NCBI GenBank assembly: GCA_947445225.1
Contig: CANFCX010000001.1
Location: forward strand, 24,189 to 88,188
Origin: Rhodospirillales bacterium
GTDB taxonomy: Bacteria; Pseudomonadota; Alphaproteobacteria; CACIAM-22H2
Length of the DNA stretch: 64,000 nt
Reading direction: 5' to 3'
Under the pieces are notes generated by a model. The model did not search any database, had not been told where the DNA came from, and saw nothing but the letters and a program-made list of their open reading frames with translations. Positions 12,846-40,163 of this stretch are shown here, one piece after another; position 1 is the stretch's first letter, and the number at the start of each line of letters is the position of its first letter. Made by a program: the position numbers and the translations under genes.

Positions 12846-15800
12846 CTAATTCCCCTGCGCGCGCTGGCCCGGCGGCGTCGCGGCGCGCGGACCGAGGGTT
12901 GCCGGCGCGGGGATGAAATCGCGGAACAGGATTTCGTCGGTGACGGTCCACGGTTGGCCGGCGGGATTGAGATAGAAGCGCCGCATTTCTTCCAGGTTGA
13001 ACGGGCGCGAGCCGATGCGGCCGAGAACGGCGATTTGACCGCCGGTTTCATCCACGCCGCGGTCGCGGTCCAGCCCCTTGGACAGGGACAGGGCCGGCCA
13101 TGAGGTCGGCGCCCAGGCGATCAGCTCGGGTTTGGGCTCGGGGCTGAAGCCGTAGAAATTCGGCTGTTTGTCGGGCGCGGTTAGGTGGACGACCTTGAGC
13201 CCGTTCACGCCGTCGGCGACATAGGCGTAAGCGGTGGCGTTGGTGGTGCCGACGATCACGTCGTGCGCGTCGTTGATCCGGCCTTCGGCGTTGTACATCA
13301 TGTACATGAAGGGCTTTTCGGGATTTTCGACGTCGACGATCGCCAGCCCCTGTTTTTTCGCGCCGACATAGGCATAGGTGCGGGCGACATAGACGCGCTG
13401 CGGATCGTCCATCGGCACGGACGCACCCTCGACCAGGCGCGGTTTGTCGGGATGGGTTACGTCCACGACCTTGAGCCCGGTGCGGTCGGTCACGAACAGA
13501 TAGCGGAATTGCAGGGCAGAGGCGCGCGCGTCGTCGAGCTTCACAACCGCCTCCAGCTTGGGCTTCAGCGGATTGTCCATGTTGAGCACAACGATGCCGG
13601 CATCGGCGGCGACGTAGAAATAATACCCGGCGATGGTCAGGTGGCGTGCGCCCTTGAGGATGTTGTTTTCGTTCCAGGTGACCGCGCGCGTCAGGAAATT
13701 GTTGCGCGGCTCGCCATCGGCCAGCGTGTTGACGTCGGTCGCGATCAAGCCTTCTTCGGAGTCGGTGATGAAGGCGTAGTTGTAGATCGGGTGGAAGGGC
13801 TGCTCCTGATTGGTCACGCGCATCAGGTCGCCCTTGTTGCGGTCGGGATGGATGGGCTGGCTGGTGGGCAACACGACGCAGGTCGCGTTTTTCGAGGCGA
13901 TATGCGTGTCTTGGCCGAACAGGGAGAACGGCGCGCTGATGATGCGCTGCGACACGCTTTTGTTGGCGATGCTGGCGGTGTCATAGACACGCATCCCGCC
14001 CTTGCCTTCGGCGACAAACAGATATTCGCCGCGCAGTTGGAGGCACGACGCCGGGCCGCCGGCGGAATGGGTGAAGGCTCCGAAAGCCGCCGAGTTGGGC
14101 AGCCGCCGGCCGCGCGCTTCGTGTTCGGCGTAAAAATCGGGGTAGGCGTATTTGTGCAGATAACTGCCGATGACCGCCTGCGGCTCTTCGATTTCGGTCA
14201 CCTGCACGGCTTCGATACCGCCGGCGCCGCCGACCCAGGCGTTGTAGCCGACGAAATTGATGAAGTTGGTCCCTTGCAGCAGAAGCTGGGCCATGATCGC
14301 GTTGTTGTCGTTGGCTTGCGACAAATGGCAATCGGTGCAGGTCTTGGTCTCGGTCTTGCGCTCCGTATGCGGATAATGCGGGGCGAAGGCCTGGCTCGAA
14401 TAACCCGATGCGGCGATCGGCGGCTGCTGGATATAGATGCGGTCGCGGTTGATGTTCTGCGACGAAAGCACCAGCGCCGAGGTCGAGCGAATCGGCGCGA
14501 TGATGCCGTTGCGAACCGGCCCGTGGCGGCCGAGCTGGAAGATTTCGTCGCGGGCGACCTGCGGGTTGTACGTGGCGAAGTTGCGGCTTTCGGTGTCTTC
14601 GTAGTGGTGCCGCGGCGTCTTGCGATTGGCCTGGATCGGCAGATGGCAGCCGCCGCAACTGGTCGACCACGACAAATGGCAGGTGAAACACGCCATCTCG
14701 TCGTCGGGATGGGCGAGGTTTTCCTCCCCGATGCCGGGGCCCCATTTCATCGACAGATCCTTGGACATCAGCTTCGCCCGCGCCGCCTTGGCGTTGTATT
14801 GCGGGCTGCTGGGATCGACGCTGTCCTTGACCAGGCTCATTTCCCATTCCAGGCCCGGCCACACCGACGAACGCTGAAACAGCTTGTTGTCGCGCCATTC
14901 GAACCGGGGACGGCCGTCGCTAAGGCGCTTCAAGGCCAAATCGCGCCCGCCCGGCGGCGCCGCCGGGCCGCTGGTGAGCAGCGTCGGATACGCCCTCGCC
15001 GTGCCGTGGCAATCGGCGCATTGGATTTCGATGGCCGCGGCGACCTCGCCGACGATATGGCCGTTGTTGTGTGCGTCCTGCGAGAAATGGCAATCGACGC
15101 ATTGCATGCCGACGTCGACATGGATCGACGACATGTGGACGGCCTTGCTGAATTTGTCCTTGTCGTCATTGGCGACTTGTTTGCCCGCCGCATCCAGCAG
15201 ATTGCCCTTGCGGTCGCGCTTGAAGATGGCGCGGAAGTTCCAGCCATGGCCGTGATAATCGGCGAATTGCGTGTCCTTGAGCGTCGGGTTGAGTTCCGCC
15301 ACCTTCCTGAGGAATTCGGCGTCGCCCCATTTGCCGCGGATGGCGGCTTCTTCGGGGTTGCGCATCAGGATGGCGTGTTCTTCCTCGGTGGTCGGATATT
15401 TCTGCTTCGCCGGCCACATCGCCTGGGCATCGGATTCATAGTCCCACATCGTGAAGCCGAGCATCGAGTTGAGGAAGATGTTCGGCTGATGCATGTGGCA
15501 GATCATGCATTGGCTGGTCGGGATGGCGTTGGTGAATTCGTGTTTGATCGGGTGCCCGGATTCACCCTTGCGGATGGTGGGATCGGCGGTCTGGGTCGTG
15601 CCGGTGCTGCCGAATTTGGCGTAGGGCCCGGAATGGCGGGGGTCGCGGTCGTTGGCGTAAACGACGTGGCAGGACGAACAGCCGGAATGGCGGAAATCGC
15701 CAGGCTGATCGTTGGTGCCCATCATCCACAAAAAGGGATCGTTCAGGCGTGTCTTGGTGATGTTGATCGCGGGCACGGCGATGCGCAAACCGGTGGCGGG

Positions 15801-16793
15801 CCCGCGGTTGGATTGCCGGATGTCGGGTCGTCCCGGCTCTTCCAGCCGCTGCAAAGCGCCGAGCGAATTGGGCAAGCCGATTTCGGGGAATTGGGTGCCG
15901 ATGTTGCGGCCGCCGCGCTCGAAAATGCGGAAGATGTCCCCCGGGGGGATGACCTCCCAGGCGGGCAGCGGCACCAGCTCGGGCAGGATGCCGCGTTTTT
16001 TCATCGCCTCGGTGGGCGCGACCGGAGCCTTCAGCGAGGCCGGCTGCCCATCGCGGGTATAGCCTTCGCCCAGGATGTAATTCTTGAACGGCAGGATTCC
16101 GTTGTTGTAGGAGGCGCCGCCCCACAACATCGCGCCGGTCGCCATCAGGCTGCGTTCGACCGCCTGAATGGTAAGCATGTGGCAGGCGCCGCAGGCCTCG
16201 CGCGCCACGCGCAGATCGCCGGGGTTGATGAAGCGCACATATTCCGGCGCTTCCTTGATGATCAGGGTGTAGGTCCGTTCCTGATTGGCGCTCGACGGGT
16301 AATGCCAGGTTTCGGGAAAACGCGGCAACACATGGGCGCCGTCCATCGCCGCCCGGTAAGCGGGCTCGTAGACCGGGGCGTGATGTTCTTCGGCATGGGC
16401 GGATTCGGTCGGCTTGATGACGATATGGGCGCCGGGCTTATAGCCGGCGAGCGGGTCCGGTTCATGGCTCGTGTCGGGGGCGTGCGCGGCCGCCTGGTCG
16501 CCGCCGGGCCCATGGCTGCCGGCCGGACGAACCACGGTGGGGTTGCCCCCGTGGCAATCGGCGCAGCCGATATTGAGGGCCGAGTTCTGATGCATGTTGG
16601 GTTGGTCGGTCGCGGTATGGCAGGTCAGACAGCCCGCGCTTTTGGCGTCGGCTTGGGCCTTGGTCTGCCCGGCCGGAGCGGGCGGCGTGAACGCGTATTT
16701 GATGTCACGCGGCTTTTCACCCTCGGCGGCAAAAACCGCGACGGCGACGCCGGAAGCCAACAGGATGCCACAGAATATCCGCCACCCGCGCAT
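12846..16793 (-). CDS. Secreted decahaem c-type cytochrome fused to C-terminal LVIVD-repeat beta-propeller (1315 aa)
   Basis: Signal peptide; ten CxxCH motifs (CLTCH, CADCH, CGACH, CSSCH, CMICH, CVDCH, CADCH, CFTCH, CGGCH, CTDCH) in first ~830 aa; C-terminal repeats LKVVDVTHPDKP / LAIVDVENPEKP / LKVVHLTAPDKQ typical of LVIVD repeats. Confidence 0.85.
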   Translation of the reverse strand: MRGWRIFCGILLASGVAVAVFAAEGEKPRDIKYAFTPPAPAGQTKAQADAKSAGCLTCHTATDQPNMHQNSALNIGCADCHGGNPTVVRPAGSHGPGGDQAAAHAPDTSHEPDPLAGYKPGAHIVIKPTESAHAEEHHAPVYEPAYRAAMDGAHVLPRFPETWHYPSSANQERTYTLIIKEAPEYVRFINPGDLRVAREACGACHMLTIQAVERSLMATGAMLWGGASYNNGILPFKNYILGEGYTRDGQPASLKAPVAPTEAMKKRGILPELVPLPAWEVIPPGDIFRIFERGGRNIGTQFPEIGLPNSLGALQRLEEPGRPDIRQSNRGPATGLRIAVPAINITKTRLNDPFLWMMGTNDQPGDFRHSGCSSCHVVYANDRDPRHSGPYAKFGSTGTTQTADPTIRKGESGHPIKHEFTNAIPTSQCMICHMHQPNIFLNSMLGFTMWDYESDAQAMWPAKQKYPTTEEEHAILMRNPEEAAIRGKWGDAEFLRKVAELNPTLKDTQFADYHGHGWNFRAIFKRDRKGNLLDAAGKQVANDDKDKFSKAVHMSSIHVDVGMQCVDCHFSQDAHNNGHIVGEVAAAIEIQCADCHGTARAYPTLLTSGPAAPPGGRDLALKRLSDGRPRFEWRDNKLFQRSSVWPGLEWEMSLVKDSVDPSSPQYNAKAARAKLMSKDLSMKWGPGIGEENLAHPDDEMACFTCHLSWSTSCGGCHLPIQANRKTPRHHYEDTESRNFATYNPQVARDEIFQLGRHGPVRNGIIAPIRSTSALVLSSQNINRDRIYIQQPPIAASGYSSQAFAPHYPHTERKTETKTCTDCHLSQANDNNAIMAQLLLQGTNFINFVGYNAWVGGAGGIEAVQVTEIEEPQAVIGSYLHKYAYPDFYAEHEARGRRLPNSAAFGAFTHSAGGPASCLQLRGEYLFVAEGKGGMRVYDTASIANKSVSQRIISAPFSLFGQDTHIASKNATCVVLPTSQPIHPDRNKGDLMRVTNQEQPFHPIYNYAFITDSEEGLIATDVNTLADGEPRNNFLTRAVTWNENNILKGARHLTIAGYYFYVAADAGIVVLNMDNPLKPKLEAVVKLDDARASALQFRYLFVTDRTGLKVVDVTHPDKPRLVEGASVPMDDPQRVYVARTYAYVGAKKQGLAIVDVENPEKPFMYMMYNAEGRINDAHDVIVGTTNATAYAYVADGVNGLKVVHLTAPDKQPNFYGFSPEPKPELIAWAPTSWPALSLSKGLDRDRGVDETGGQIAVLGRIGSRPFNLEEMRRFYLNPAGQPWTVTDEILFRDFIPAPATLGPRAATPPGQRAQGN

Positions 16794-16801
16794 CGGCTAC
16801 C

Positions 16802-18688
16802 TCAATAAGTCAGGATCAGATTGGCCAGGACGGAATAAAAGAGGTCCTGGCTGCGGCTGGTTTCGTACAGATCGCGCAGCCCGTCGCTCGGCACCAAGAC
16901 CGCGCCGGACAGCCGGAACACGATGTTCTGCATGAACAGAGGCCGGTAGATCGCGGCGACCGAAAGGTCATAACCGATGTCGTGATGGATGTCGGCCTGG
17001 TTGCGGAGGAATTCGAGCGAGGAGGTATCCATGAATTCCAGCTTGTTGAAATTCGTGGACAGCCGCAGTTCCGGGGTCACGTCCATGTCGGTGCCGAAGC
17101 CGAGCAGCCGGATGCCGGGATTGTTGAAATTGGATTGCCCGATTTCCTTCGACGGGCGCAGCGACGGCAACACGCCGTTGCGGGGCGAAAGGGCGACACC
17201 GCCGCCGCCGATGAAGGGGATCGACTGGCGTATCCAATAGCTGGTGTCGGCGCCGGCGAATTGCGGGTTCTCGAAGATGGCGTCGAAACCCTCTTCCCGG
17301 TTGTCGAAGGGGTCCTTGTCGCCGCTGGCGACCAAAGCGGAGGCGCGCACGCGGATCCAGTCGAAATCGATGGAAGGCTCGATCGCGGCGAAATAGGCGC
17401 GAATGTCCGACTTATCGATTCCGCTGAACTGGTTATGATCGTCGGTGCCAAAGGCGTAATAGGCCGAGCCGGTCAGGTTGAGCCGGCCGAAATGCCCGTC
17501 GCCGTTGAGGCCGAGATAGTGGACATCGTATTTGCGCGGCCGCTGGTCGCCGATCGTGGCCGGGCGCTGCAGGAAGAAGTTCTTGTCGTAGTAGAAATCC
17601 TCGCTCTCGTCGTTGACGTTGTACATATACGTCGCCTGCGAGGTGAAGCCGACCACCGGGAAATCCTGCGCATAGACATTGGCAATATAGATATCGTCCT
17701 TGCGCAGCGGCTGGCCGATGTCGTTGAGGCCGCTATTGGTGTCCTTTTCCAGCCGGCGGAACCAGGCCAGATTGTATTGATAGAGGTTGTTCGAGCGGTT
17801 GCCGAACAGTCGCGCGCCCAACTGAATGTCCTGGAACACGAAGCCGCGGAAATCCGAGGAAAACGGCTGGATGCCGATGCGGATCGAATCGAAATCGTAA
17901 CGGTCCGACACGTTGCGTAGGTGATAGTCGATGAAGCCTTCCTGGAAGGCGATCATGTTGTCGGAGCGCACGGTGCCCTGGTTGGGGTCGGCGAACAGCA
18001 CGCCGCGTTCCTCGACCTCCGCGCGGTTGTATTGAATGACCGGCGTGATGCGGAATTCGTAATCGGGCGGGCGGTAGGCGGTGTCGCCCTTGATCAGCGA
18101 GGCGCTCAAGATCACGGTCTCGACGAACACGTTTTGGTTGGTGTCGCCGAACAGATCGACGGAGTTGGCGCGCCGCGTGGTCGAAATGCCCACCGGAATC
18201 GGCGTGCGCCGCGGCTCGTAGACCGTGTCCGAAATCGCGCTGAGGTTGATGAACCAATCGTCCCACAGCGGGCGGTCGCCTTTGAGCGTGTTCTGGTTGT
18301 ACGGGTCCCACCAGCGTTCGTTGACGCCGATCGCCTCGATCAGGCGCCAGCGATCCGGGATCGGGATGAATTCGCGCGGCAACACCGGCGACGGCGGCGG
18401 CACGGCACCGGGATCGGTGATCGGAGCCACGCGCGGCGGCGCGGGCGGCGGCGCGCCGGGCCGCCGCTGATCCTGGGCGACGATGGGCGCGACGGCGCCG
18501 GGTTGGGGAATTCCGAAATTGCCAGGGCTTCTCCCCGCCGGGGCGAGGAGAGGCGATTCCTCCTTGCCGGCCCAGGCCGGAACGGGAAGGCTCACCGCCG
18601 CCAGGGCCAAAATAAGGGGCAGCGAAGCCAATCCCGAAAGTCCGACCGTCTTTGTCCGCCGGCGCATCCTAGATGACCCCGCACACAT
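16802..18688 (-). CDS. Outer-membrane beta-barrel protein (porin-like, ~620 aa)
   Basis: Signal peptide MRRRTKTVGLSGLASLPLILALAAVSLPVPAWA (ATG at 18667 probably the true start); alternating amphipathic strands; C-terminal ...LANLILTY aromatic terminus typical of OMPs. Confidence 0.7.
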   Translation of the reverse strand: MCAGSSRMRRRTKTVGLSGLASLPLILALAAVSLPVPAWAGKEESPLLAPAGRSPGNFGIPQPGAVAPIVAQDQRRPGAPPPAPPRVAPITDPGAVPPPSPVLPREFIPIPDRWRLIEAIGVNERWWDPYNQNTLKGDRPLWDDWFINLSAISDTVYEPRRTPIPVGISTTRRANSVDLFGDTNQNVFVETVILSASLIKGDTAYRPPDYEFRITPVIQYNRAEVEERGVLFADPNQGTVRSDNMIAFQEGFIDYHLRNVSDRYDFDSIRIGIQPFSSDFRGFVFQDIQLGARLFGNRSNNLYQYNLAWFRRLEKDTNSGLNDIGQPLRKDDIYIANVYAQDFPVVGFTSQATYMYNVNDESEDFYYDKNFFLQRPATIGDQRPRKYDVHYLGLNGDGHFGRLNLTGSAYYAFGTDDHNQFSGIDKSDIRAYFAAIEPSIDFDWIRVRASALVASGDKDPFDNREEGFDAIFENPQFAGADTSYWIRQSIPFIGGGGVALSPRNGVLPSLRPSKEIGQSNFNNPGIRLLGFGTDMDVTPELRLSTNFNKLEFMDTSSLEFLRNQADIHHDIGYDLSVAAIYRPLFMQNIVFRLSGAVLVPSDGLRDLYETSRSQDLFYSVLANLILTY

Positions 18689-20558
18689 TCTGCGCCTTGG
18701 TAATGCCCAGGAAGGGGGTGAACGGGCAACTGACGTAACGCAGCCGAGTGCCGCGCGGGGACAGGTTGTCCGACCGCACGGCCGGGCGCGCGTTGCTCAA
18801 TCCGTTGCCCTTGCCGCCATGATAGAGGCCAAGCGCGGCGATCATGTCGTCCTGGTCGATGCCATCGCCCGAAACGCCGACGCCGCCGACCAACACGCCG
18901 TTGCGGTAGATCGGCACGCCGCCGGCGAATATCTGGATGCCGTTGGCCAGCCGGTTGGACCCGCCGGCCGCGGCGACCGCTGCCAGCCCGGTGCAGCCAG
19001 CGGCGTTGGTGGCGTTGCCGGGGTTGGTCAGGTGATTGGCGATGTCGGTGGAGACGAGGTCGAGCTGCAGCCCGGTGCTGAACGGGCTCCATTGCTGAAA
19101 GGGACGGCTCAACGGCCCCACCGACTGGCCATCGACGCCATCGGGGAAATAGGGGCGCGCGATGTTGCCGATGGCGCGAGCGCTATACGCGATGCCGTCG
19201 GCGAAAGCGGTCGGCCCGATCAAGGACCGTGCCTGGGCAATGTAATCGACGGCCAGCGCCAGCGCGGTGATTTCCGCGCCCGCGGTCGTCCGCGAGAAAA
19301 ACACGGCGGTTCGGCCTTTTTGCAGTGACACGTCGGTGCCGAAGACGGGCGCATCGGGGGTACGCACCAAACCCAGGACCAGGCCATTGGTGTCGACCAC
19401 ACTGATGGTGACCTGGGCGTAGCTGCCCAGCGGGCGCCGGATTTGCGCACGCGCCAGAAGCGCCACATCGAGGGCATGGCGCAGGATGGAGTTGACCTCG
19501 GCGGCGGTCAGCACATTGGCCGCGCCACCCACCACGGTGGCGGCGTCGCCACCGGCGGTCGGCGGAAAACGGTTGGCGCCGGCCGCGTTTTCCAACACGA
19601 AGGCGCGGCCGTTGTTGAAGACGCCGCCCGGATCGGGGATGTAGCCCGAACCCGCCGCGCCGAAAACCTGACCGGCGATGACGGCGGCGTTGGCATAACC
19701 GGCGACCGCGACCAGCGCCCCACCGGCGGGCGGGAAAGCCGGGGCCGAGCTGGGGTTGCTGCGGAAATCGGCCGGCGTGGCGTCCGAATAGCGGAGCGTG
19801 CGACCACCGGCGGTGATGCGGTTGGCGCGAATGTCGATGGGCGCGTCGAAGCCGTTGGTCCCGGCCAGCGCGATGACCTCGTCGGGATCGACGTCGCGAT
19901 TGATGATGTCGAGATCCAGGCTGTAGACACCATCGGAGATGGCGCCGACGCCGCCGACGACCCGGCCGTTCTTGTACAAGGGGAAGCCGCCGGTATCGGC
20001 GGACAACCCGGCAGGCGAACGTTTGGGGCCGCGCGTGGCCACGCCGGGGAATTGCAGGTTCAGGTCCGAACACGGCAATTGGCTGAATTGAACGCCGAAC
20101 AGCGGGCCGCCGGGCTGTTGTTTTTCGCCGACGTTGAAATGTTCCTGGACGATCTGGCTGGCCACCCGGGTGGAAAACGCGTTGCCGGCGGACGACAGAT
20201 AAGCGCCGGTGACCGCCTTGGCGATGGCCAAGAGGGTATCGGTATTGGCGATGGCGGCGCCTTCGAGGCCGGTGGCGACACCGCGCCCGGAACTGACCGT
20301 GATCGTCGTTGCGGCGCCGGTCATGCGGAAGACGCCGAGCACGTTGCCGACGCGATCGACGACGGCGATGGTGGCCAACCGGCCGCGCGCCGTGGCCTCC
20401 GTCACCGCCTGCGAAATCACCACGCCGACATCGGCGACCGTGAGGTTCTGCGCGCGCGCCGGAGCGGCGGACAGGGCGGTAAGACCGGCTAGACCCAGCA
20501 GGACCGCGAGAACCCGCCGCGCGACATAGTTCCCGGTCATGGCGGTCCTCGCGGTCAT
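18669..20558 (-). CDS. Secreted protein with two tandem GlcG/HbpS-like (DUF336, haem-binding/degrading-type) domains
   Basis: Signal peptide; motifs RLATIAVVDRVGNVLGVFRMTGA and QVTISVVDTNGLVLGLVRTPDAPVFGTDVSLQKGRTAVFFS, plus GGVGVSGDGIDQDDMIAALG typical of GlcG family. Confidence 0.7.
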   Translation of the reverse strand: MTARTAMTGNYVARRVLAVLLGLAGLTALSAAPARAQNLTVADVGVVISQAVTEATARGRLATIAVVDRVGNVLGVFRMTGAATTITVSSGRGVATGLEGAAIANTDTLLAIAKAVTGAYLSSAGNAFSTRVASQIVQEHFNVGEKQQPGGPLFGVQFSQLPCSDLNLQFPGVATRGPKRSPAGLSADTGGFPLYKNGRVVGGVGAISDGVYSLDLDIINRDVDPDEVIALAGTNGFDAPIDIRANRITAGGRTLRYSDATPADFRSNPSSAPAFPPAGGALVAVAGYANAAVIAGQVFGAAGSGYIPDPGGVFNNGRAFVLENAAGANRFPPTAGGDAATVVGGAANVLTAAEVNSILRHALDVALLARAQIRRPLGSYAQVTISVVDTNGLVLGLVRTPDAPVFGTDVSLQKGRTAVFFSRTTAGAEITALALAVDYIAQARSLIGPTAFADGIAYSARAIGNIARPYFPDGVDGQSVGPLSRPFQQWSPFSTGLQLDLVSTDIANHLTNPGNATNAAGCTGLAAVAAAGGSNRLANGIQIFAGGVPIYRNGVLVGGVGVSGDGIDQDDMIAALGLYHGGKGNGLSNARPAVRSDNLSPRGTRLRYVSCPFTPFLGITKAQNVCGVI

Positions 20559-21025
20559 TGCGCGATACCCACCCGGAACACGCCGAATTTGAAGCTGTCG
20601 GCCGTGCGATAGGCAACGATCACGTTAAAAGGGAATTCCTGGCCGGTGAGGTCTTCCTTCAACACCTTGAAGACGAGCCGGTTGCCGACGGGCTGGATGC
20701 GATTGTCGATCAGATGGTCGGTGTCGCCGTCCCAGCGCACCCAATAGCCGAGATTGCTGCGCTGCAGCAGCAAATTTCCCCAGGGTTTGGCGATGACATA
20801 GGTGGCGAGCGGCTGATCGCCGTGCAGATCGATTTCGCGGATGATCTCGGCGGCCTCCGGGCGAATGGCGATCGGCGCCAGCATCGCACCTTCAACGCTC
20901 AACGCCTCGCCCCGGCCGGACGCCGGGGCCAGCAACGCCAACGCCATGAAAAAAAAGGTAAATCCAAATCTGGACGGACCGGCTTTCGGTCGTGTTCCAC
21001 TTGGATCGTGCGCCAACAGCGCCAT
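20555..21025 (-). CDS. Small secreted hypothetical protein (~156 aa)
   Basis: In-frame ATG (MALLAHDPSG...) downstream of cytochrome stop; hydrophobic FGFTFFFMALALLAPASG signal-like segment; 4-nt overlap with next gene. Confidence 0.5.
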   Translation of the reverse strand: MALLAHDPSGTRPKAGPSRFGFTFFFMALALLAPASGRGEALSVEGAMLAPIAIRPEAAEIIREIDLHGDQPLATYVIAKPWGNLLLQRSNLGYWVRWDGDTDHLIDNRIQPVGNRLVFKVLKEDLTGQEFPFNVIVAYRTADSFKFGVFRVGIAQ

Positions 21026-21072
21026 CCGGTCATCCCCCATTTTTTTTGCCCGGCCAACAAAGCCGCGCCACT

Positions 21073-22779
21073 TTAACGCGGCGCGCCCGTTTGGCCAACC
21101 CCCGGCGCGCCGCCGACGGCTTGCGGACGCATCGGACCCATGGCCGGCGTGTGGAAGACGTGGCAGGCCACGCAGGTCGACGGCACCAACGTAGTCACTT
21201 CTTCCCCGCCATGGCAGCGGCGGCAATTGGCGATCCCCGGGAGCAGGACCTCGGAACTGGCAACGGATTTCGGCGCGGCGTGGCAATCGACGCAATCGGT
21301 GTTTTTGTGTTTGCTGTGATCGAATTTGCCCTTGGGCATCCAGGTCGCCGCCACGAACACCGGCTTGACCCGGAAATTGGGTCTCTCGTCGAGCCGGGTC
21401 GTCCGTTCGACGAGGTGGCAACTCCCGCAGATGCTCTTGCCGTAGACGATCTCGATGGTCGCATCGGCGCGGCTGCGCGCCCAGGCCAGCGCTTCGGTGC
21501 GCGCCGCTTCCTCGATCGGCGTGCCGGCACGGCGACGCACGGCGGCCGGCGCCGTGGGATCCTCGAAACCGCCTTCGAGTGCGACGCGGCCGTAGAAATC
21601 GTTGAGGACCTTGGCGACTTCGTCGGGTTTGCCATGCGGCACTTCGCGGTCGAGCGCCTGGGCCTCGAACTTCAATTTGTGGCAATCGCGGCAATCGGTC
21701 TCCATGTCAACCGCACGCATGCCCACGCCGCCGGTCTCCGGGCGGTGGCAATCATTGCAGACCATTTTCTGCAAGCCGGTGGGGCCACGCACGCCGGCTG
21801 GCACCAAATGTTTGTCATGCGGGAAGATTAGGTTGGAATTTTCCTTCAGCGCCGGATCACCGATCGCCAACCGCGCCAGGGTCCGCGTTGCCGGGTCGGT
21901 CACCACCGACGGCCGAAATTCGGGGTGATCGCGGCCGAAATCGCTGACGTTGATCAGCTTGGTCGTGGGGATGATCGCGGTCAGCCGCACATGGCAATCG
22001 TCGCACAAGGCTTGCGCCGTCTGGATCGCCGGCTGCCGGCCTTGATGTTCCTTGTGGCAAGACGCGCAGCGAGTCTCTTCCAGTGCCGGCAGTTGCACCG
22101 TCTTCACATCGGCGTGGTGGGCGATGTCGCTGTGGCAGGTAAGGCAGGCCTGGTCCTGGACCATGATGAAGGGCCGCTCGTGGCAGGTCGTGCAATCACT
22201 CGCGAAATATTTGTGCACGCCGGAGATTTCGCCGGATTCCCATGACTTGTCCGCCGCGATCGGCATCGCCGTCATGCTTTTGTGAAGGTCGGGTATGAAA
22301 AAGGCAGCGACCGGAAGGACCAGGAAAAGCAGGAGCACGGTGGCGAACGCGGTCCACGACAATACGCGTTTGCTGAACGCGGCATCACCCAGGCGGGCAT
22401 GGCTGCGCTGCGTTAGTTCGGCGAGATCGTCTCCCAGCGGCTGCACCAATTCGACGGTAACCGCGACGCCATAGCCAGGCGGCGCTTCCACCACATCGAT
22501 CTTGTAGGGACCGACGGCGATCGAATCGCCGGGCCGGACACGACCTGAATTGGCGGCGGCGCCATTGATGGAAAGATCGTTGCTGCCAACCGCGGAGGCG
22601 TAGACCTGGCCCTCGCGCACATGTATTTCGGCGTGGTCGAGCGCGACCCGCGGATCAGGAAGATAGACTTCGTTCTTGGTGCCGCGGCCGATGCGGATGA
22701 ATTCCACGGTGGCGTCTTGGTCGCGCCGGGAGACGCCACGATTGCCGCGCCGAGTCAAATAGCCGACTTGGACAAGCAC
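21073..22779 (-). CDS. FHA domain - transmembrane helix - periplasmic decahaem c-type cytochrome fusion (568 aa)
   Basis: N-terminal FHA (IRIGRGTKNEVYLPDPRVALDHAEIHVREGQVYASAVGSNDLSINGAAANSGRVRPGDSIAVGPYKI), TM VLSWTAFATVLLLFLVLPVAAFFIP, then ten CxxCH motifs (CTTCH, CLTCH, CASCH, CDDCH, CNDCH, CRDCH, CGSCH, CVDCH, CRRCH, CVACH); GTG start with GGGAG SD. Confidence 0.85.
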   Translation of the reverse strand: MLVQVGYLTRRGNRGVSRRDQDATVEFIRIGRGTKNEVYLPDPRVALDHAEIHVREGQVYASAVGSNDLSINGAAANSGRVRPGDSIAVGPYKIDVVEAPPGYGVAVTVELVQPLGDDLAELTQRSHARLGDAAFSKRVLSWTAFATVLLLFLVLPVAAFFIPDLHKSMTAMPIAADKSWESGEISGVHKYFASDCTTCHERPFIMVQDQACLTCHSDIAHHADVKTVQLPALEETRCASCHKEHQGRQPAIQTAQALCDDCHVRLTAIIPTTKLINVSDFGRDHPEFRPSVVTDPATRTLARLAIGDPALKENSNLIFPHDKHLVPAGVRGPTGLQKMVCNDCHRPETGGVGMRAVDMETDCRDCHKLKFEAQALDREVPHGKPDEVAKVLNDFYGRVALEGGFEDPTAPAAVRRRAGTPIEEAARTEALAWARSRADATIEIVYGKSICGSCHLVERTTRLDERPNFRVKPVFVAATWMPKGKFDHSKHKNTDCVDCHAAPKSVASSEVLLPGIANCRRCHGGEEVTTLVPSTCVACHVFHTPAMGPMRPQAVGGAPGVGQTGAPR

Positions 22780-22803
22780 GGTATTACTCCCGCTCCGAAA
22801 TCG

Positions 22804-23661
22804 TTACCAGTAGAAGAAAACGGAGAAAACGTGGGTCGTCAGCGCCGCCAAAAGGCCGACCGACAACGGCACGTGGAACATCAGCCAAATTTCCAGGAAA
22901 GCCCGGTATTGCACGTCGCGCCGCGCGCGACCGACAAGGTCGCTCTTGCGGCTCAACAAGGTCAGCAATTTACGCACGGCGACGGCGTCTTCCACCGAGA
23001 CCTTGGTCGCGAGTTGTTTGATCCTGGCCAGCGCGCGCGAAGTCGGGCAATTGGGATCGCGGCCGGAAAGCTGACGCCACACCGACCCGCCGATCTGAGT
23101 ATTGCGTCCGGAATCGAGCACCGCCCGCGTGATCTCGTCGGGCAGTCCCATGGAAACTTCGCGGCTTTCGGTATCGAGCGCGGCGATGCGCGTGAAAATC
23201 TCGGTCAGTGTCAGCCCGCCGCGGTTCTGGGTCATCAAGGCGGGATACCGTTGATAGAAAAACACGCCGAACACGCCCGACAGGATGACCAGCATCATCA
23301 AGGTGTAGGCAAGCGTATGCACGTTCCAGCCGAACTGGAACCCGGTGTGCAGCGTGGCCACGACGATCAGCGCGAGGCCGAGATAGACATGCGCCGATAG
23401 CCAGCCCTGAAGTTTCGTCGGACCCTGGTTGTACCGCCGTTTACGTACGCCGAACCACATCAGCCACAGGATCAAGCCCGCGCCGATCGTGCCCAACACA
23501 TAACCGAGCCACGTGCCGCCATTGGGCGGGTCCAACGGGCTGTGGGCGCCGTAGACGATCGCAGCCGCCAGCGCGCCCAGGACGGCGACCTTCAAATACC
23601 GGAAGTTGCGGTAGACGAGATAGGATTGATGCATCGTCTTTTGGCTGTTGGCCGACCTCAA
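22804..23661 (-). CDS. Polytopic membrane protein with conserved intramembrane histidines (candidate b-type haem/quinol-interacting subunit)
   Basis: 285 aa, five predicted TM helices each with His (SAHVYLG, TLHTGF, NVHTLAY, MFHVPLS, TTHVFSV); TTG start overlapping upstream stop (TTGA). Confidence 0.55.
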   Translation of the reverse strand: MRSANSQKTMHQSYLVYRNFRYLKVAVLGALAAAIVYGAHSPLDPPNGGTWLGYVLGTIGAGLILWLMWFGVRKRRYNQGPTKLQGWLSAHVYLGLALIVVATLHTGFQFGWNVHTLAYTLMMLVILSGVFGVFFYQRYPALMTQNRGGLTLTEIFTRIAALDTESREVSMGLPDEITRAVLDSGRNTQIGGSVWRQLSGRDPNCPTSRALARIKQLATKVSVEDAVAVRKLLTLLSRKSDLVGRARRDVQYRAFLEIWLMFHVPLSVGLLAALTTHVFSVFFYW

Positions 23662-26057
23662 AGACCCCGGTTAGACAGCGAGAAGAATTCCTCGGGGCTG
23701 ACACGAATGGCGGCGCCGGTCGGACAGGCCCGCACGCAGGACGGGCCGCCTTCGATGCCTTTGCACATGTCGCATTTCACCGCCATCTTGCGTTTGTTCG
23801 GGTCTTTTTTCTTGCCGTGGGTGGCTTCCCAATCCTCGCCCGGCCCGTGGCCCAGCCCGAACAACATCCAGGCCAGCAAGCCCGGCTTGGCCGGCGGCTC
23901 CGCCGACATGTGAATGACGTGATAAGGACAATTGCGCTCGCAATTGCCGCAACCGATGCATTTTTCGTCGATGAACACTTCACCATTGGGCGAACGGTGG
24001 ATGGCGTCGGCCGGGCAATCGGACATGCAATGCGGGTGTTCGCAATGCCGGCACGAGGTTGGCACATGGATCGAGGCATAGGTCGGGCCGGCTTCGCGAT
24101 CCAGCCGCGACACCCCGTGATGGGTCTCGGCGCAGGCCTTTTCGCAATTGTCGCACCGCACGCACAGCGATTCGTCGATCAACAGAACGTCGGTCGCCTC
24201 GCCCAAACCTTGGTCGAGCAGGAACTGCATCAGATTCGAATGGTCGGGCCGGCCTTCCATGCGGGCGTTTTCGACGAGCCGTGCCTGGAACCGAGATTCG
24301 ACCTCGACGCGCAACTCGGGCGAGCGATCGAGCAGGCCGCGGAAGGCGCCGCCATCGAGTTTGATGGCCTCCGTCGCCACCGCCGCCCGCACCGTGGCGG
24401 TGCGCGGGCTCTTGGTCAGCAGCGCCATTTCGCCGACATAATGGCCGGCGGGGACATAGGACAAAACCACGTCGCGGCCGCCCAGGTTGCGCGCCACGGT
24501 CACCGACCCGCTGCGGATCAAATAGACGTTGTCGCCGATATCGCCTTCCTTGATCAGCACGTCGCCGGCGCTGAAGGACTGGATCGTGGCCGTGCGCACG
24601 ACATCGACCAGGTCGCGCTTGGAGACCTGCGGCGCTAGATGCGTCTGCACCTGGCGGATCATGGCGGTTTCGTCGAGCACACGTTTAGCCGCGGCGATCG
24701 AACGGGTCAGCTTGATAACCTGCCGGCGCGGGGTCTCGATCAACACGCAATCGGCGCCCGCCACCACCGTCGCCGTGCGCCGGCGGCCGGAGATCAAACC
24801 CATCTCGCCGAAGAATTCGCCGGTCTTCAGCGTCACCTTGATCGCTGGGTTTTCGGCGCTGACCTGGACATCGACCGACCCCGACAGGATCGAATAGAAG
24901 CTGTCGGAATAATCGTTGCGCTTGAAAACGATCTCGCCCTGTTTGGGCACATGGACGTCGCTGTCGAGCAGGAATTCGCGAAGCTGCAGCTTGGTCAACG
25001 AGGAGAACATCGGCACGCGCTGCTGCACGCCCTCCAGGAACTGCGAGACGGTCACCCCTTGCAGCCCCGTGAGTTTTGCCTCGAGCAGCGGCTCGTCCGC
25101 CGGCTTCACCTCATGCCCGAGGATATATTCGACCACCTCGTAGCCCTGGTTCATGCAGTGTTTGATCAGGGGATAACCGGCGAGCGCGCCGATGATGTAC
25201 AGCCCCTTCACGTTCGATTCGTAGCTGTCGCTGACCCCCGGAACCGAGGCCGGATCGGCGTTGGGGAACACGATGCCGCAGGCCTCGACGAATTTGCGCG
25301 GCGGCAGGGCGCCGATACGGGCGATGACCCGGTGGCACTTGACCACCGCCTCGCCCTCCGGCGTTTTCAGGAAAATGGCGCTGGGATCGGTCTCGACCTT
25401 AATGACCTTGGTATTGAAATAACACTGGATGCGGCCTTCCTTGATGGCCGATTCGATCAGCGCGACGTTGCCCGCCTTGGCGCGCGCGAAATCACCCATG
25501 ACGTTGACGACGATGACCTCGTTTTGGGCGGCCAGCGCGATGGCGTTTTCGAGCCCGGCATCACCGGCGCCGATCACAACGATGGTTTCGTCTTTGTATT
25601 CTTCCGGGTCGTCGAGTTGGTACTGGACGTTGGGGCCGGTTTCGCCGGGTACGCCGAGGGTGCGGATATTGCCCTGCAACCCAATGGCGAGCACGACGGC
25701 ATCGGCGGTGAGCGTTTGTTTGTTGGCGAGCGTGATCGTGAAGATCGCGCCTTCCTTCTTGATGCCCGCGACATCGGCGTTTTGGCGCAGGTTGAATTTC
25801 AACTCGCCGGCGCTTTTGTCCCAGGAACCGAGGATGGTTTCGCGGGCGCCTTCCTTGAATTGAAGATCGCTGCGCAGGGGCAGGACCTCCGGCGTCGCCA
25901 TGACGTGTTTTTTCTTCTGATACTTGTAGATCGTATCGGAAAGATGGGTGGTGCGTTCGAGCAGCACATAAGACGCGCCACGCTTGGCCGCGCGTCCCGC
26001 CGCGCTTAATCCGGCCGGGCCCGATCCGACAATCGCGATCGCATAGTGTTCGGCCAT
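23658..26057 (-). CDS. FAD/NAD(P)-binding oxidoreductase fused to two cNMP-binding domains and a C-terminal 4x[4Fe-4S] ferredoxin domain (799 aa)
   Basis: GSGPAG and GAGDAG dinucleotide folds; two CRP-type cNMP signatures (FGEMGLISGRRRTATVVA; VGEMALLTKSPRTATVRA); four Cys clusters CVRCDNCEKAC, CRHCEHPHCMSDCP, CIGCGNCERNCP, CDMCKG..CVRACP. Confidence 0.85.
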   Translation of the reverse strand: MAEHYAIAIVGSGPAGLSAAGRAAKRGASYVLLERTTHLSDTIYKYQKKKHVMATPEVLPLRSDLQFKEGARETILGSWDKSAGELKFNLRQNADVAGIKKEGAIFTITLANKQTLTADAVVLAIGLQGNIRTLGVPGETGPNVQYQLDDPEEYKDETIVVIGAGDAGLENAIALAAQNEVIVVNVMGDFARAKAGNVALIESAIKEGRIQCYFNTKVIKVETDPSAIFLKTPEGEAVVKCHRVIARIGALPPRKFVEACGIVFPNADPASVPGVSDSYESNVKGLYIIGALAGYPLIKHCMNQGYEVVEYILGHEVKPADEPLLEAKLTGLQGVTVSQFLEGVQQRVPMFSSLTKLQLREFLLDSDVHVPKQGEIVFKRNDYSDSFYSILSGSVDVQVSAENPAIKVTLKTGEFFGEMGLISGRRRTATVVAGADCVLIETPRRQVIKLTRSIAAAKRVLDETAMIRQVQTHLAPQVSKRDLVDVVRTATIQSFSAGDVLIKEGDIGDNVYLIRSGSVTVARNLGGRDVVLSYVPAGHYVGEMALLTKSPRTATVRAAVATEAIKLDGGAFRGLLDRSPELRVEVESRFQARLVENARMEGRPDHSNLMQFLLDQGLGEATDVLLIDESLCVRCDNCEKACAETHHGVSRLDREAGPTYASIHVPTSCRHCEHPHCMSDCPADAIHRSPNGEVFIDEKCIGCGNCERNCPYHVIHMSAEPPAKPGLLAWMLFGLGHGPGEDWEATHGKKKDPNKRKMAVKCDMCKGIEGGPSCVRACPTGAAIRVSPEEFFSLSNRGL

Positions 26058-26244
26058 GCCGGTCCGCCCCCTCGGACACGTCAGCGTTTGTCGAGACCCC
26101 CCCGAACCCGAATCGACGCTTTACGAAAGGCCCGCGCCGCCAGGATTTCATATACACGTTAGGGTTATAGACCGACGGTTGTCAATTTCGGAGTGTCCTT
26201 CTACAGTGCATTTCTGTCCGGTCGAACGCACCCGCAACAGGGGG

Positions 26245-27933
26245 AACCATCGGGTGACGAAGCGGCAAGCTTTGCATCGCCTATCGCTAAAATCCGCGGC
26301 CGGCGCCGTGGCGTTGGTTTGCCTTGCCGGATCGGCGGTGGGGCAGGTCGCCGGCAGTGGCTGGATCGTCGATCCGCGATCGGGTTGTGCAACCAGCAAT
26401 CCCTTTCCCAAGGACGGCGAGAGCATCGCTTGGTTTGGCGGCTGCCGCGACGGCAAACTCGACGGGCCCGGCCTGCTTATCTGGTACCGAAGCGGGTTTG
26501 AGGCCGAACGCGACGAGGGTTTTTTCCAAGGCGGGGAGCTGGACGGACCGGCGACGATCACCTTCGCCGACGGTAACTCCGTGCGCGGCGATTACCGCAT
26601 GGGTGAACGCCATGGCGAGTTCCTCGTCCATCAGCGCGACGGAACCGCCCTTTATCGCCTCTACGATCTCGGCCGGCTCGCCGCCGAACGCCCGGCCACC
26701 GGCGAAGATGCCGTGCGCCTCCAATCGCGTGCGACCGCCGCCGTCGCCCCAATCGCACCCACGCCCGTGCCGGCCGCCCCACCGCGCGCCCAAGCGGCGG
26801 CGCCTCCTGCCATGGCCGAACCGGAACCCAGGCCGATGGCGGCCGCGCCGATCGAGCCGCTGCGGCCGCAGCCCGCCCCGCCACCATTGGCCAGCCTGAC
26901 CCCACCGCCACCGCCGCCGCCGCTGCCCGCCCCCACCCGGCCTTCGACATCGGCGGCATTCGGCAGCGCGGCGCGCAGCGACGTCGAAATCGACCTGGGC
27001 GTGTTGGCGTCGCTGCGGGCGCCATCGGCGGCGTCCTCCAGTCGATCGACCGCGCCGGTGAAGCTGCGTCCGCCTCGGGCGGCCGCGCCAACGGCGGCGA
27101 CGCGACGCGCCCCGGTCCAGGCCGCGGTTCGGCCCGCCGTGTTCGTCGATGCCTCGGTGATCGACGGTCTGGGCGCGGTTCGCGCGGTCGCCGCCGCCAG
27201 GCCCGCCGCCACCCGCGCCAACTTCGTCCAGCAATCCGCCGCGCTGGTGCCGGATTGGTACTTGCCCGCGGGACAGACTTTCGCTGCGGCGGACTACACC
27301 CCAGCCGCCGCGCCGATCTCCGCGGTCACGCCTGAAATTCTTTTCGCCGAGGGCTACCGCCACGAGCGCGACGGGCGCATGAGCCAGGCCGAGGCGCTCT
27401 ACGATACCGTCTACCGCCTCTATGCCGAAACGCCGATGGCAGTCCTCGCCGGGGAACGCCTGGCCTGGGTGCGGCAGCAAACCACCGGTTTGCCCATGCC
27501 GCAGCAAACCATGCTGGCCGCCGCCGGAAGTGCCTCGATCGGGCAGTCCACGACCCCGATCGGGCGGTCAACCGCGCCGATCCCGCCGGCGACGACACCA
27601 ATGTCGCCCGCGACCGCGACTTTCGCGCCGCCGCAGCCGTCGGCGCCGCCGGTGCAGTCCGCGCAAATTCCGGTCGCCGCCGTGGTGCGTTCACGTGTGG
27701 GCGCCTATCTGTGCACCGTCGATGGGCTGTATTCCAACAGCTCGCGCTGGTGCGGCGTTGTCCGCCGTGAATATGACCGTTATTTCGAGGTCGAGGTCAG
27801 CAAGGTGACGATCAAGACGCCGCTGGCCGTGGGCTTTAACAGTTCGGCCTGTACCGGCAACAAGTTCATCGGCTATTTCTCTTTCGGCGAGCGCGTCTGG
27901 GTACCCCAGAATTGCATGGCGGAGACTCTTTAA
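26245..27933 (+). CDS. Secreted MORN-repeat protein with Pro/Ala-rich linker and Cys-containing C-terminal domain
   Basis: GTG start 26245 with GGGGGAA SD; signal peptide VTKRQALHRLSLKSAAGAVALVCLAGSAVGQ; MORN-like repeats WFGGCRDGKLDGPGLLIWY..GFFQGGELDGPATITFADGN..GDYRMGERHGEFL. Confidence 0.6.
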   Translation, partial: NHRVTKRQALHRLSLKSAAGAVALVCLAGSAVGQVAGSGWIVDPRSGCATSNPFPKDGESIAWFGGCRDGKLDGPGLLIWYRSGFEAERDEGFFQGGELDGPATITFADGNSVRGDYRMGERHGEFLVHQRDGTALYRLYDLGRLAAERPATGEDAVRLQSRATAAVAPIAPTPVPAAPPRAQAAAPPAMAEPEPRPMAAAPIEPLRPQPAPPPLASLTPPPPPPPLPAPTRPSTSAAFGSAARSDVEIDLGVLASLRAPSAASSSRSTAPVKLRPPRAAAPTAATRRAPVQAAVRPAVFVDASVIDGLGAVRAVAAARPAATRANFVQQSAALVPDWYLPAGQTFAAADYTPAAAPISAVTPEILFAEGYRHERDGRMSQAEALYDTVYRLYAETPMAVLAGERLAWVRQQTTGLPMPQQTMLAAAGSASIGQSTTPIGRSTAPIPPATTPMSPATATFAPPQPSAPPVQSAQIPVAAVVRSRVGAYLCTVDGLYSNSSRWCGVVRREYDRYFEVEVSKVTIKTPLAVGFNSSACTGNKFIGYFSFGERVWVPQNCMAETL

Positions 27934-36368: not shown

Positions 36369-36434
36369 GGCCAAAGCATGGGACGCGGAGTCGGGCGCGT
36401 CAATGAGAGCGAAACCAAGGTCGAGGCCGTAACG

Positions 36435-37400: not shown

Positions 37401-37404
37401 CCGC

Positions 37405-40160: not shown

Positions 40161-40163
40161 GCG

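Follow-up and report, generated by a model that had tools for sequence, protein, structure and literature searches.

A widely conserved, probably trans-envelope multihaem electron-transfer cluster of a Rhodospirillales bacterium and its relation to the ptd and NHC systems

Genes of the cluster and their products

The stretch of DNA considered here, referred to below as the window, comprises 64,000 nucleotides (nt) of contig CANFCX010000001.1 (positions 24,189 to 88,188 of the forward strand, assembly GCA_947445225.1) from a Rhodospirillales bacterium, and its positions 12846-26057 carry seven co-oriented open reading frames (ORFs) of the minus strand, numbered g1 to g7 in the direction of reading, which make up a multihaem cluster probably serving electron transfer across the cell envelope. 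Seven such genes had been described in a first-pass annotation made from the sequence letters, and all of the ORFs are found with the coordinates it had assigned to them; its domain calls for g1, g2, g3, g5 and g7 agree with the results of Pfam search and with the counts of hydrophobic segments and CXXCH motifs. Overlaps of 4, 4 and 20 nt join g1 to g2, g4 to g5 and g5 to g6, respectively, and gaps of 24 and 8 nt separate g2 from g3 and g6 from g7. The limit of 25 nt which the annotation had given for all overlaps and gaps holds for these five junctions and is slightly exceeded between g3 and g4, where the gap is 32-47 nt long and contains a hairpin.

The inner module consists of g1, g2 and g3. 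The product of g1 (799 amino acids, aa; 23658-26057) joins in one chain a TrxR/YpdA-like flavoprotein, tandem cyclic-nucleotide-binding (CNB) domains and a HycB/NrfC-like ferredoxin domain for four [4Fe-4S] clusters. Residues 1-320 (25098-26057) form the FAD/NAD(P)H oxidoreductase domain, recognized by Pyr_redox_3 over residues 9-290 (1.8e-33) and by Pyr_redox_2 over residues 6-305; the two CNB domains occupy residues ~345-600 (24258-25025; cNMP_binding, 4.4e-39, two stretches), and residues ~620-799 (23658-24200; Fer4_7, Fer4_11 and related families) constitute the ferredoxin domain, whose sequence displays four Cys motifs of the four-cluster type known from DmsB, NrfC and HycB. Sequence matches in the PDB include the tandem CNB domains of PKA-R/PKG, HycB (7z0s_B), YpdA (7a7b) and NrfC. 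The GxGxxG motifs and the Arg of the phosphate-binding cassette in both CNB domains are conserved in 54 homologues, each of the two domains in g1 keeping the Gly-Glu of this cassette along with the Arg, and neither a signal peptide nor a transmembrane (TM) or other hydrophobic segment is present. Assignment of g1 to thioredoxin reductases was considered and rejected, its residues 1-330 lacking CxxC and its score against TIGR01292 being 62.5 at a cut-off of 343; the nearest matches of the flavin domain are flavoproteins of the YpdA/Bdr type.

The product of g2 (285 aa; 22804-23661), with five hydrophobic segments, is predicted to be a di-haem cytochrome b resembling ferric reductase domains. 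Pfam matches to Ni_hydr_CYTB (cytochrome b561; 0.0019) and Ferric_reduct (0.094) are weak and both below cut-off, and single-sequence search of the PDB gave nothing significant. Five of its seven His residues are, at the same time, invariant across an alignment of the window protein with 41 homologues (42 sequences), namely His91 and His105 on TM3, His263 and His277 on TM5, and His115. Members of each pair are spaced by 14 residues and, in the positive-inside topology read from the sequence, lie one near each face of the membrane; this pattern is the classical signature of two stacked b-haems, and haem binding by g2 is predicted from it. The third gene, g3 (568 aa; 21073-22779), codes for an inner-membrane-anchored decahaem cytochrome c with an FHA domain in residues 28-90 (3e-7, 31.2 bits at a Pfam cut-off of 20.7), a TM segment in residues 144-162 and ten CXXCH motifs, the same number being found in 49 of 51 homologues.

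The outer module is built around the pair of g6 and g7. The product of g6 (628 aa; 16802-18688) is a channel of the outer membrane, AlgE/OprD-like in type and preceded by a Pro-rich N-terminal extension on the periplasmic side. Modelling by AlphaFold2 from 52 sequences yields a barrel of 18 strands, and the predicted local distance difference test score within the strands is 80-97. No Pfam match of g6 is above threshold, PF13372 (Alginate_exp) reaching 13.1 bits (E 0.04) at a cut-off of 25.2; a precomputed match to the same family exists for 2 of 120 homologues, and some homologues are named ‘alginate export domain’. Single-sequence search of the PDB with g6 returned nothing significant, and the charge of the lumen, predicted from strand periodicity, is balanced and uninformative.

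The last gene, g7 (1315 aa; 12846-16793), encodes a Sec-exported decahaem cytochrome c, one of only two multihaem ORFs of the window, in which a decahaem domain (residues ~46-880; 14154-16658; ten CXXCH) is followed by a seven-bladed LVIVD beta-propeller (residues ~900-1290; 12924-14096; LVIVD 9.8e-18). No other protein of the module is as conserved, its identity between proteobacterial classes being 62-72%. A broad alignment covering 162 members of the family shows conservation of all ten haem motifs, of twelve further His and of Met217, and the propeller contains no conserved His, Cys or Met. For modelling, residues 46-98 were joined to residues 143-1288 with omission of a His-rich insertion, and the resulting model is confident for the seven-bladed propeller alone; fold searches returned generic propellers only, and PDB searches with the single sequence and with a profile gave no significant match and no solved relative of the haem domain. 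The omitted insertion (44 residues, 99-142; 16368-16499) is located between haems 2 and 3 and is lacking in most of 120 close homologues. As to the description of g7 as ‘secreted’ in the first-pass annotation, export by the Sec pathway stands, the homologues having ordinary Sec signals with AxA cleavage sites, and the extracellular location finds no support, lipobox-like motifs occurring in 9 of 120 homologues and being absent from the remaining 111. Because of this plain Sec signal and of a relative equipped with a peptidoglycan-binding OmpA domain, which is described below, g7 is probably periplasmic.

Two exported proteins are encoded between g3 and g6. The product of g5 (629 aa; 18669-20558) is a tandem HbpS/GlcG-like protein in which PF03928 is recognized in two stretches (7.7e-21), with PDB matches to PduO-C, EfgA and HbpS; it has a plain signal peptide in the window, and its relatives in many beta- and gammaproteobacterial loci are, as judged by lipoboxes, outer-membrane-type lipoproteins with a Gly-rich tether. 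The small exported protein of g4 (156 aa; 20555-21025) has a signal-like N-terminus and no Pfam match and is a lineage-restricted accessory, detectable in only 15 of 80 related loci; its start is most likely at 21025, behind GGGGGA. The GC-rich hairpin of 8-9 bp at 21062-21085, picked up by a terminator-like scan, spans the stop codon of g3 and the first part of the g3-g4 spacer. Attenuation, or processing that divides the inner from the outer module, could be its role, and it belongs to the sites which promoter and terminator scans found in the window no more commonly than in shuffled sequence.

Conservation of the cluster in Proteobacteria and other phyla

A scan of one genome per GTDB species yielded 517 stretches encoding a g7 relative; for 80 of these the flanking DNA was also retrieved, and they were compared by tblastn with the seven proteins of the window. 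The order g1-g2-g3-(g4)-g5-g6-g7 on one strand recurs in Alpha-, Beta- and Gammaproteobacteria, and all six large genes are co-oriented in 52 of the 56 informative loci, i.e., of those with at least 9 kb upstream of g7; adjacency by chance is rejected on this count. The gene order is identical in 44 of the 52 complete loci, the others having g1 (six loci, mostly annotated as Betaproteobacteria) or g1-g3 (two loci) relocated behind g7. None of the other ORFs of the window is conserved in related loci, and the boundaries of the module therefore coincide with those of the finding. The first-pass annotation had taken the seven genes for a single functional module and proposed a synteny search for co-occurrence of their families; such a search having been run as described, this view is borne out both by the co-occurrence of the six large genes and by the lack of any other co-conserved gene in the window. 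Further universally linked genes were sought in 86 loci and none was found, the best families of the flanks (PP2C, a double-FHA protein and genes of type II secretion systems or type IV pili, T2SS/T4P) recurring in 9-11 loci. The cluster is a real and widely conserved operon. Median identity decreases from g7 (65%), g6 (58%) and g1 (56%) to g5 (51%), g2 (47%) and g3 (36%), and the fact that g7 and g6 are the most conserved components and the putative wire g3 the least is in keeping with a specific role of the outer end in catalysis or binding.

At least 517 species-representative genomes contain the module, which is also represented by thousands of protein clusters from metagenomes, and its carriers belong to Alpha-, Beta- and Gammaproteobacteria, Acidobacteria, KSB1, Wallbacteria and Xenobia. 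Cultured ones are known among them, including Zavarzinia sp. CC-PAN008, Arenicella sp. 4NH20-0111, Nisaea acidiphila, Nisaea sediminum, Oceanibacterium hippocampi and Halieaceae GM1-29, and nearly all family members with a named source are annotated as ‘hypothetical protein’. An eighth gene, encoding a c554-like tetrahaem cytochrome of ~440 aa with an additional CX4CH motif, was found in 48 of the 80 proteobacterial loci, usually directly after g7 (e.g., L062:13681-15003); no c554-like tetrahaem counterpart exists in the whole 64-kb window. A PP2C-type Ser/Thr phosphatase and a double-FHA protein are encoded directly downstream of the cluster in 11 gammaproteobacterial loci (e.g., L077:14886-15932 and L075:16002-17192), and T2SS/T4P-like genes stand beside it in six of the 86 loci (L004, L006, L014, L018, L060 and L073).

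More distant relatives were collected by searching the haem domain of g7 against 1.84 billion cluster representatives, which gave 585 matches below 1e-30, among them full-length proteins with 41-52% identity that all keep the architecture of cytochrome plus LVIVD propeller. Named sources are Acidobacteria, KSB1, Wallbacteria and Candidatus Xenobia. Six distant genomic contexts were read and checked with hidden Markov models built from the proteobacterial families, and a g6 homologue stands directly upstream of the g7 homologue in all six (E 1e-55 to 1e-173), so that the adjacency of g6 and g7 holds without exception in the loci examined, which cover several phyla. The pair adjoins homologues of g1, g2 and g3 in Proteobacteria, Acidobacteria, Wallbacteria and Xenobia, and the wallbacterial locus has a g5 homologue as well. 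In the acidobacterial locus L081 it is followed in turn by a tetrahaem protein, a protein with cNMP and Fer4 domains, a g2 homologue, a decahaem cytochrome, a triple-FHA protein and a flavoprotein composed of FHA, FAD_binding_6 and NAD_binding_1 domains. A divergent operon of L086 encodes a g3-like decahaem cytochrome, a g2 homologue, a protein with FHA, NuoG-like Fe-S, cNMP and Fer4 parts, and a NuoE/NuoF-like protein; a Ser/Thr kinase is encoded beside this operon, and another one near the cluster of L081. Three unrelated NAD(P)H dehydrogenase modules are consequently attached to the same downstream chain: TrxR-like in the window, FNR-like in L081 and NuoEF-like in L086. This replacement is the strongest comparative argument as to the identity of the cytoplasmic partner, and it points to NAD(P)H.

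Fusions are informative with respect to location. The g7 relative of L082 (P0447; 10001-14116) ends in an OmpA domain, a fusion seen in a single sequence cluster, and two g6 relatives (L082:7599-9980 and L084:7725-9980) begin with AMIN domains. OmpA-like and AMIN domains bind peptidoglycan, and for this reason g7 and the N-terminus of g6 are placed in the periplasm. In both of these loci the AMIN-fused barrel and the g7 homologue are accompanied by a monohaem cytochrome c. Glucose-6-phosphate dehydrogenase, a generator of NADPH, adjoins the g6-g7 pair in two of the six distant loci (L082:15787-17352 and L086:6321-7856), and a CHASE2-cyclase is encoded in L086 (1256-3619) at 4.6 kb from the barrel gene.

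The neighbours of the cluster in the window are housekeeping genes (those for PriA, an XerC-like integrase, the delta subunit of ATP synthase and cobalamin synthesis), an orphan GspD-type secretin and a nucleotide cyclase. The secretin gene (29157-31295, minus strand; Secretin, Secretin_N and GspD N0 domains) lies 3 kb upstream of g1, and no GspE, GspF or prepilin peptidase was found across the 64 kb. A 625-aa ORF of the plus strand (26056-27933), divergent from g1, contains, as judged by eye, MORN-like repeats along with an extended stretch rich in Pro and Ala; Pfam gave no match for it, and it is not conserved among related loci. Cobalamin biosynthesis genes (CobQ, CobD, CbiC, CbiG and methylases) form a block at 33858-42685; an Rfam scan of the window gave nothing at the gathering score, cobalamin riboswitch included, and a tRNA scan was empty. 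A class III adenylate/guanylate cyclase is encoded at 42664-44505 (minus strand), 16.6 kb from the cluster. This enzyme and the CHASE2-cyclase of L086 are possible sources of a ligand for the cNMP domains, the link being weak. Upstream of g1, the search for a shared regulatory motif revealed no recognisable box of the Fur, FNR or Irr type; sigma-70-like TTGACA elements occur there in some Alphaproteobacteria, and nothing else is shared.

Proposed path of electrons and its alternatives

Considering these data together, we lean towards regarding the cluster as a two-module electron-transfer system which spans the envelope from NAD(P)H to an outer-membrane channel. The first-pass annotation had envisaged an unbroken electron path starting from cytoplasmic NAD(P)H, and the encoded parts support such a series of redox centres, beginning with the flavoprotein in the cytoplasm and continuing as far as the outer-membrane barrel. 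In the proposed scheme, cytoplasmic NAD(P)H would be oxidised on the flavin of g1 and the electrons would then run along its four [4Fe-4S] clusters, the CNB domains inserted between the flavin and ferredoxin parts being the probable gate of this step. As a di-haem cytochrome b of the ferric-reductase type, g2 would move electrons over the inner membrane with the quinone pool bypassed, and the ten c-haems of g3, held by a one-helix anchor and reaching into the periplasm, would accept them, while the cytoplasmic FHA domain of g3 may dock or regulate cytoplasmic partners. The decahaem g7, presumably periplasmic and associated with the outer membrane, would bring electrons to this membrane and work together with g6 as a dedicated 18-strand AlgE/OprD-like channel; g5, and g4 where it is present, may be accessory. 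The last redox step is expected to involve a soluble species passing or entering the g6 channel rather than a surface cytochrome touching a mineral, and its site might be either the periplasm, with reduction following entry by way of g6, or the channel mouth. The net direction is most probably outward, i.e., reductive, because redox potential and membrane potential would both assist the export of electrons, because no subunit coupling to the proton-motive force is present and because the architecture parallels that of NADPH oxidases (NOX) and ferric reductases (FRE). Domain content and neighbouring genes further suggest gating by cyclic nucleotides and by FHA-read Ser/Thr phosphorylation, as indicated by the conserved cassette Arg in both CNB domains, by the PP2C and double-FHA neighbours and by the kinases near the clusters of L081 and L086.

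Several observations weigh against this scheme. Operons combining multihaem cytochromes with an outer-membrane barrel typify transfer across the outer membrane rather than periplasmic enzymes, and the T2SS/T4P-like genes in 6 of the 86 loci together with the secretin 3 kb from g1 make secretion of g7 or g5 possible. In g7, a centre of catalysis is marked neither by an atypical haem motif (CXXCK, CX3-4CH or CXnCH) nor by a conserved metal site of the propeller, and the haem domain in the g7 model is of low confidence. With respect to regulation, the phosphothreonine-contacting Ser and His of the g3 FHA domain are poorly conserved among 51 homologues, Gly31-Arg32 and Asn72-Gly73 being present; for this reason, and in line with a match of the YscD type, the domain may be a phospho-independent docking module. 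Finally, L082 and L084 contain no g1 or g2 within 10 kb and have the monohaem cytochrome c, so the feed from NAD(P)H is not universal and the direction of flow could differ.

Among the alternatives, the true extracellular conduit suggested by the first-pass annotation, with g7 (alone or with g5) on the cell surface and electrons crossing the outer membrane through or beside g6 and reaching insoluble Fe(III)/Mn(IV), humics, electrodes or partner cells, appears to us unlikely. It would account for the invariable adjacency of the multihaem chain and the outer-membrane barrel, for the outer-membrane-type lipoprotein nature of g5 in many taxa and for the T2SS-like genes adjoining the cluster in six loci, with a secretin nearby in the window. 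The first three haems of some g7 homologues also match the MtrC/MtrF domain II/IV family with 25-29 bits at a cut-off of 30, and the extended protein P0265 scores 40 bits against it. However, g7 does not belong to the lipoproteins, fusion to OmpA and AMIN domains indicates the periplasm, and the identity of 62-72% retained by g7 across classes differs from the behaviour of surface cytochromes, which on general knowledge evolve fast. The named carriers, in addition, belong to genera mainly described as aerobic heterotrophs, e.g., Zavarzinia, Arenicella, Nisaea, Dokdonella and Steroidobacter.

Operation of the system in the oxidative direction we consider improbable. Here the substrate oxidised by g7 would enter via g6 and might be, e.g., Fe(II), Mn(II) or a sulphur or nitrogen compound in reduced form; its electrons would go inward, either to cytochrome c and on to a terminal oxidase or, uphill, by way of g3, g2 and g1 to NAD(P)+. 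Inward flow of electrons derived from Fe(II) was proposed for a homologous trio by the authors of the Ferrigenium study (10.64898/2026.01.22.701106). The class I monohaem cytochrome c encoded directly downstream of g7 in L082 and L084, with no g1 or g2 nearby, resembles the arrangement of a periplasmic oxidase or dehydrogenase with cytochrome c as acceptor, but a monohaem cytochrome c is an equally usual donor to periplasmic reductases (NirS, NosZ and CCP). According to established bioenergetics, most donors would have to pass their electrons from the positive to the negative side of the membrane and onto NAD(P)+ against membrane potential as well as redox potential, and no subunit for coupling to the proton-motive force is encoded. 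A device for redox sensing and signalling, in which the periplasmic redox state would be read by the haems and the HbpS-like protein and relayed via the FHA and cNMP domains, is suggested by a redox-stress sensor accessory protein within the HbpS family (PF03928; PDB 4bmw) and by the FHA, cNMP, PP2C and kinase domains associated with the cluster, but is very improbable given that ~27 redox centres and a full NAD(P)H dehydrogenase far exceed the needs of a sensor, that the cluster contains no conserved output domain (DNA-binding domain, histidine kinase or cyclase) and that several phyla keep the rest of the module without g5.

Returning to the outward, NAD(P)H-fed scheme, it may tentatively be carried one step further, to a stretched counterpart of NADPH oxidase and ferric reductase in which a flavin, four Fe-S clusters, two haems b and then twenty haems c would hand the electrons of NAD(P)H on to the channel under a switch operated by cyclic nucleotides and Ser/Thr phosphorylation, i.e., a hitherto unrecognised route for exporting reducing power. 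If so, extracellular superoxide production, reductive iron acquisition or reduction of soluble oxidants at the cell surface would be possible uses, and such an export route would be carried by hundreds of species from soil, freshwater and ocean, many of them from genera described as aerobic heterotrophs. If the path is as proposed, the chain spanning the envelope would be fed directly by NAD(P)H, not by quinol; we know of no experimentally studied bacterial counterpart of such an exit route, and g1 would be, to our knowledge, the first cyclic-nucleotide-gated electron-transfer protein. This putative design, NAD(P)H-fed, quinone-independent and regulated through cNMP and FHA domains, is unlike the characterised bacterial conduits, and the module is both widespread and represented among cultured carriers.

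Comparison with known systems

In the cluster, as in MtrCAB, PioAB and MtoAB, one operon encodes both the c-haem chain and the outer-membrane beta-barrel to which this chain leads. The individual components are different. Identification of g6 with an MtrB-type sheath is rejected, the barrel being AlgE-like with 18 strands vs. 26 in MtrB; g3 is not a soluble decahaem protein of the MtrA/DmsE kind, as it is TM-anchored and scores 18.7 bits against TIGR03508 at a cut-off of 192; and g7 is not a surface lipoprotein of the MtrC/OmcA kind, having no match to TIGR03507 or PF22113 and no lipobox in 111 of 120 homologues. Entry into the chain is different as well, passing, as proposed, from NAD(P)H through Fe-S clusters to cytochrome b and not from quinol via a CymA-type protein. 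The statement of the first-pass annotation that the cluster is not MtrCAB, PioAB/MtoAB, Cyc2 or a Geobacter Pcc/Ext module is thus confirmed, the NCBIfam families of DmsE, MtrC/OmcA and GSU2203 giving 17-19 bits at cut-offs of 192-325, whereas the MtrCAB-like picture it had drawn is revised in view of the type of barrel and of the probable periplasmic location of g7. The Tmc, Hmc and DsrMKJOP complexes of sulphate reducers follow a comparable logic, combining a multihaem cytochrome c of the periplasm with a cytochrome b of the membrane and an Fe-S protein of the cytoplasm, with weak matches to TmcA and DsrO, but the present cluster has no subunits of the CCG/HdrD type, a NAD(P)H flavoprotein at the cytoplasmic end and an outer-membrane channel at the other. 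As regards AlgE and OccD/OprD, their identity with g6 is only 8-13%, the lumen of g6 is predicted to be balanced in charge and not strongly positive, and no genes for polysaccharides are found nearby.

A likeness of principle is offered by eukaryotic NOX and FRE and bacterial MsrQ, of the ferric-reductase-domain superfamily, where cytoplasmic NAD(P)H, a flavin and two stacked b-haems bound through His pairs of TM3 and TM5 serve an acceptor outside the membrane. The haem ligands of gp91phox are His101/115 and His209/222, and the corresponding spacing in g2 is 14 residues in both pairs. On the other hand, g2 has five TM segments and a Ferric_reduct match of only 0.094, the dehydrogenase is a separate TrxR-like one with interposed Fe-S clusters, and the acceptor would be a 20-haem periplasmic relay vs. 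O2 or Fe(III) reduced directly by NOX and FRE.

The claim that no described system has this composition needs to be divided, since the architecture of the inner trio matches that of ptdEFG and of the Ferrigenium ‘NHC’ genes, while for the outer pair it stands: in the literature on LVIVD proteins and cytochromes, on alginate-export barrels and multihaem proteins and on propeller-cytochrome fusions, no description of the g6-g7 pair was found. Among described systems the closest is ptdABCDEFG; it occurs in marine Alphaproteobacteria and other bacteria, and its function is called completely unknown by its authors (bioRxiv 10.1101/2023.11.21.568154). Compared by description only, PtdE (cNMP-binding, 4Fe-4S), PtdF and the decahaem PtdG have the architecture of the C-terminal two thirds of g1, of g2 and of g3, and PtdF was independently termed ‘ferric reductase-like’ (bioRxiv 10.1101/2023.11.21.568154). 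Also common to both systems are a FAD/NAD(P) oxidoreductase, which is PtdC in ptd, and a ‘porin’ (PtdB) whose gene adjoins that of a multihaem protein. They diverge at the distal end, where PtdA is a pentahaem protein of the NrfA family with a beta-sandwich and the protein beside the barrel in the window, g7, is a decahaem cytochrome with an LVIVD propeller, having no CXXCK motif and no NrfA-family match. PtdC is separate and described as flavohaemoprotein-like, whereas the flavoprotein of the window is fused into g1; the tetrahaem PtdD has no counterpart in the window, although the c554-like tetrahaem gene is found in 48 of 80 related loci and L081 has a separate FNR-like flavoprotein; and the ptd cluster lacks an HbpS-like gene.

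The ‘NHC’ trio of Ferrigenium straubiae was described as novel and of unknown function, its authors favouring inward flow from Fe(II) oxidation (bioRxiv 10.64898/2026.01.22.701106). Its membrane-anchored multihaem protein with a cytoplasmic FHA domain, adjacent 5-TM protein and adjacent [4Fe-4S] protein correspond by description to g3, g2 and g1, respectively, with nine haems vs. ten; nirK and an SHP-like gene stand next to the trio, whose description includes neither a barrel nor a propeller-cytochrome partner. One and the same answer would also give a function to the ptd and ‘NHC’ genes, flagged as unexplained by two groups. The cluster is best classed as a trans-envelope multihaem electron-transfer cluster related to the ptd and NHC systems, the likeness of the trio being one of architecture, and what is new in it is the fusion of the flavoprotein into g1 and a distal module composed of a decahaem-LVIVD propeller protein, an AlgE-like barrel and a tandem HbpS-like protein.

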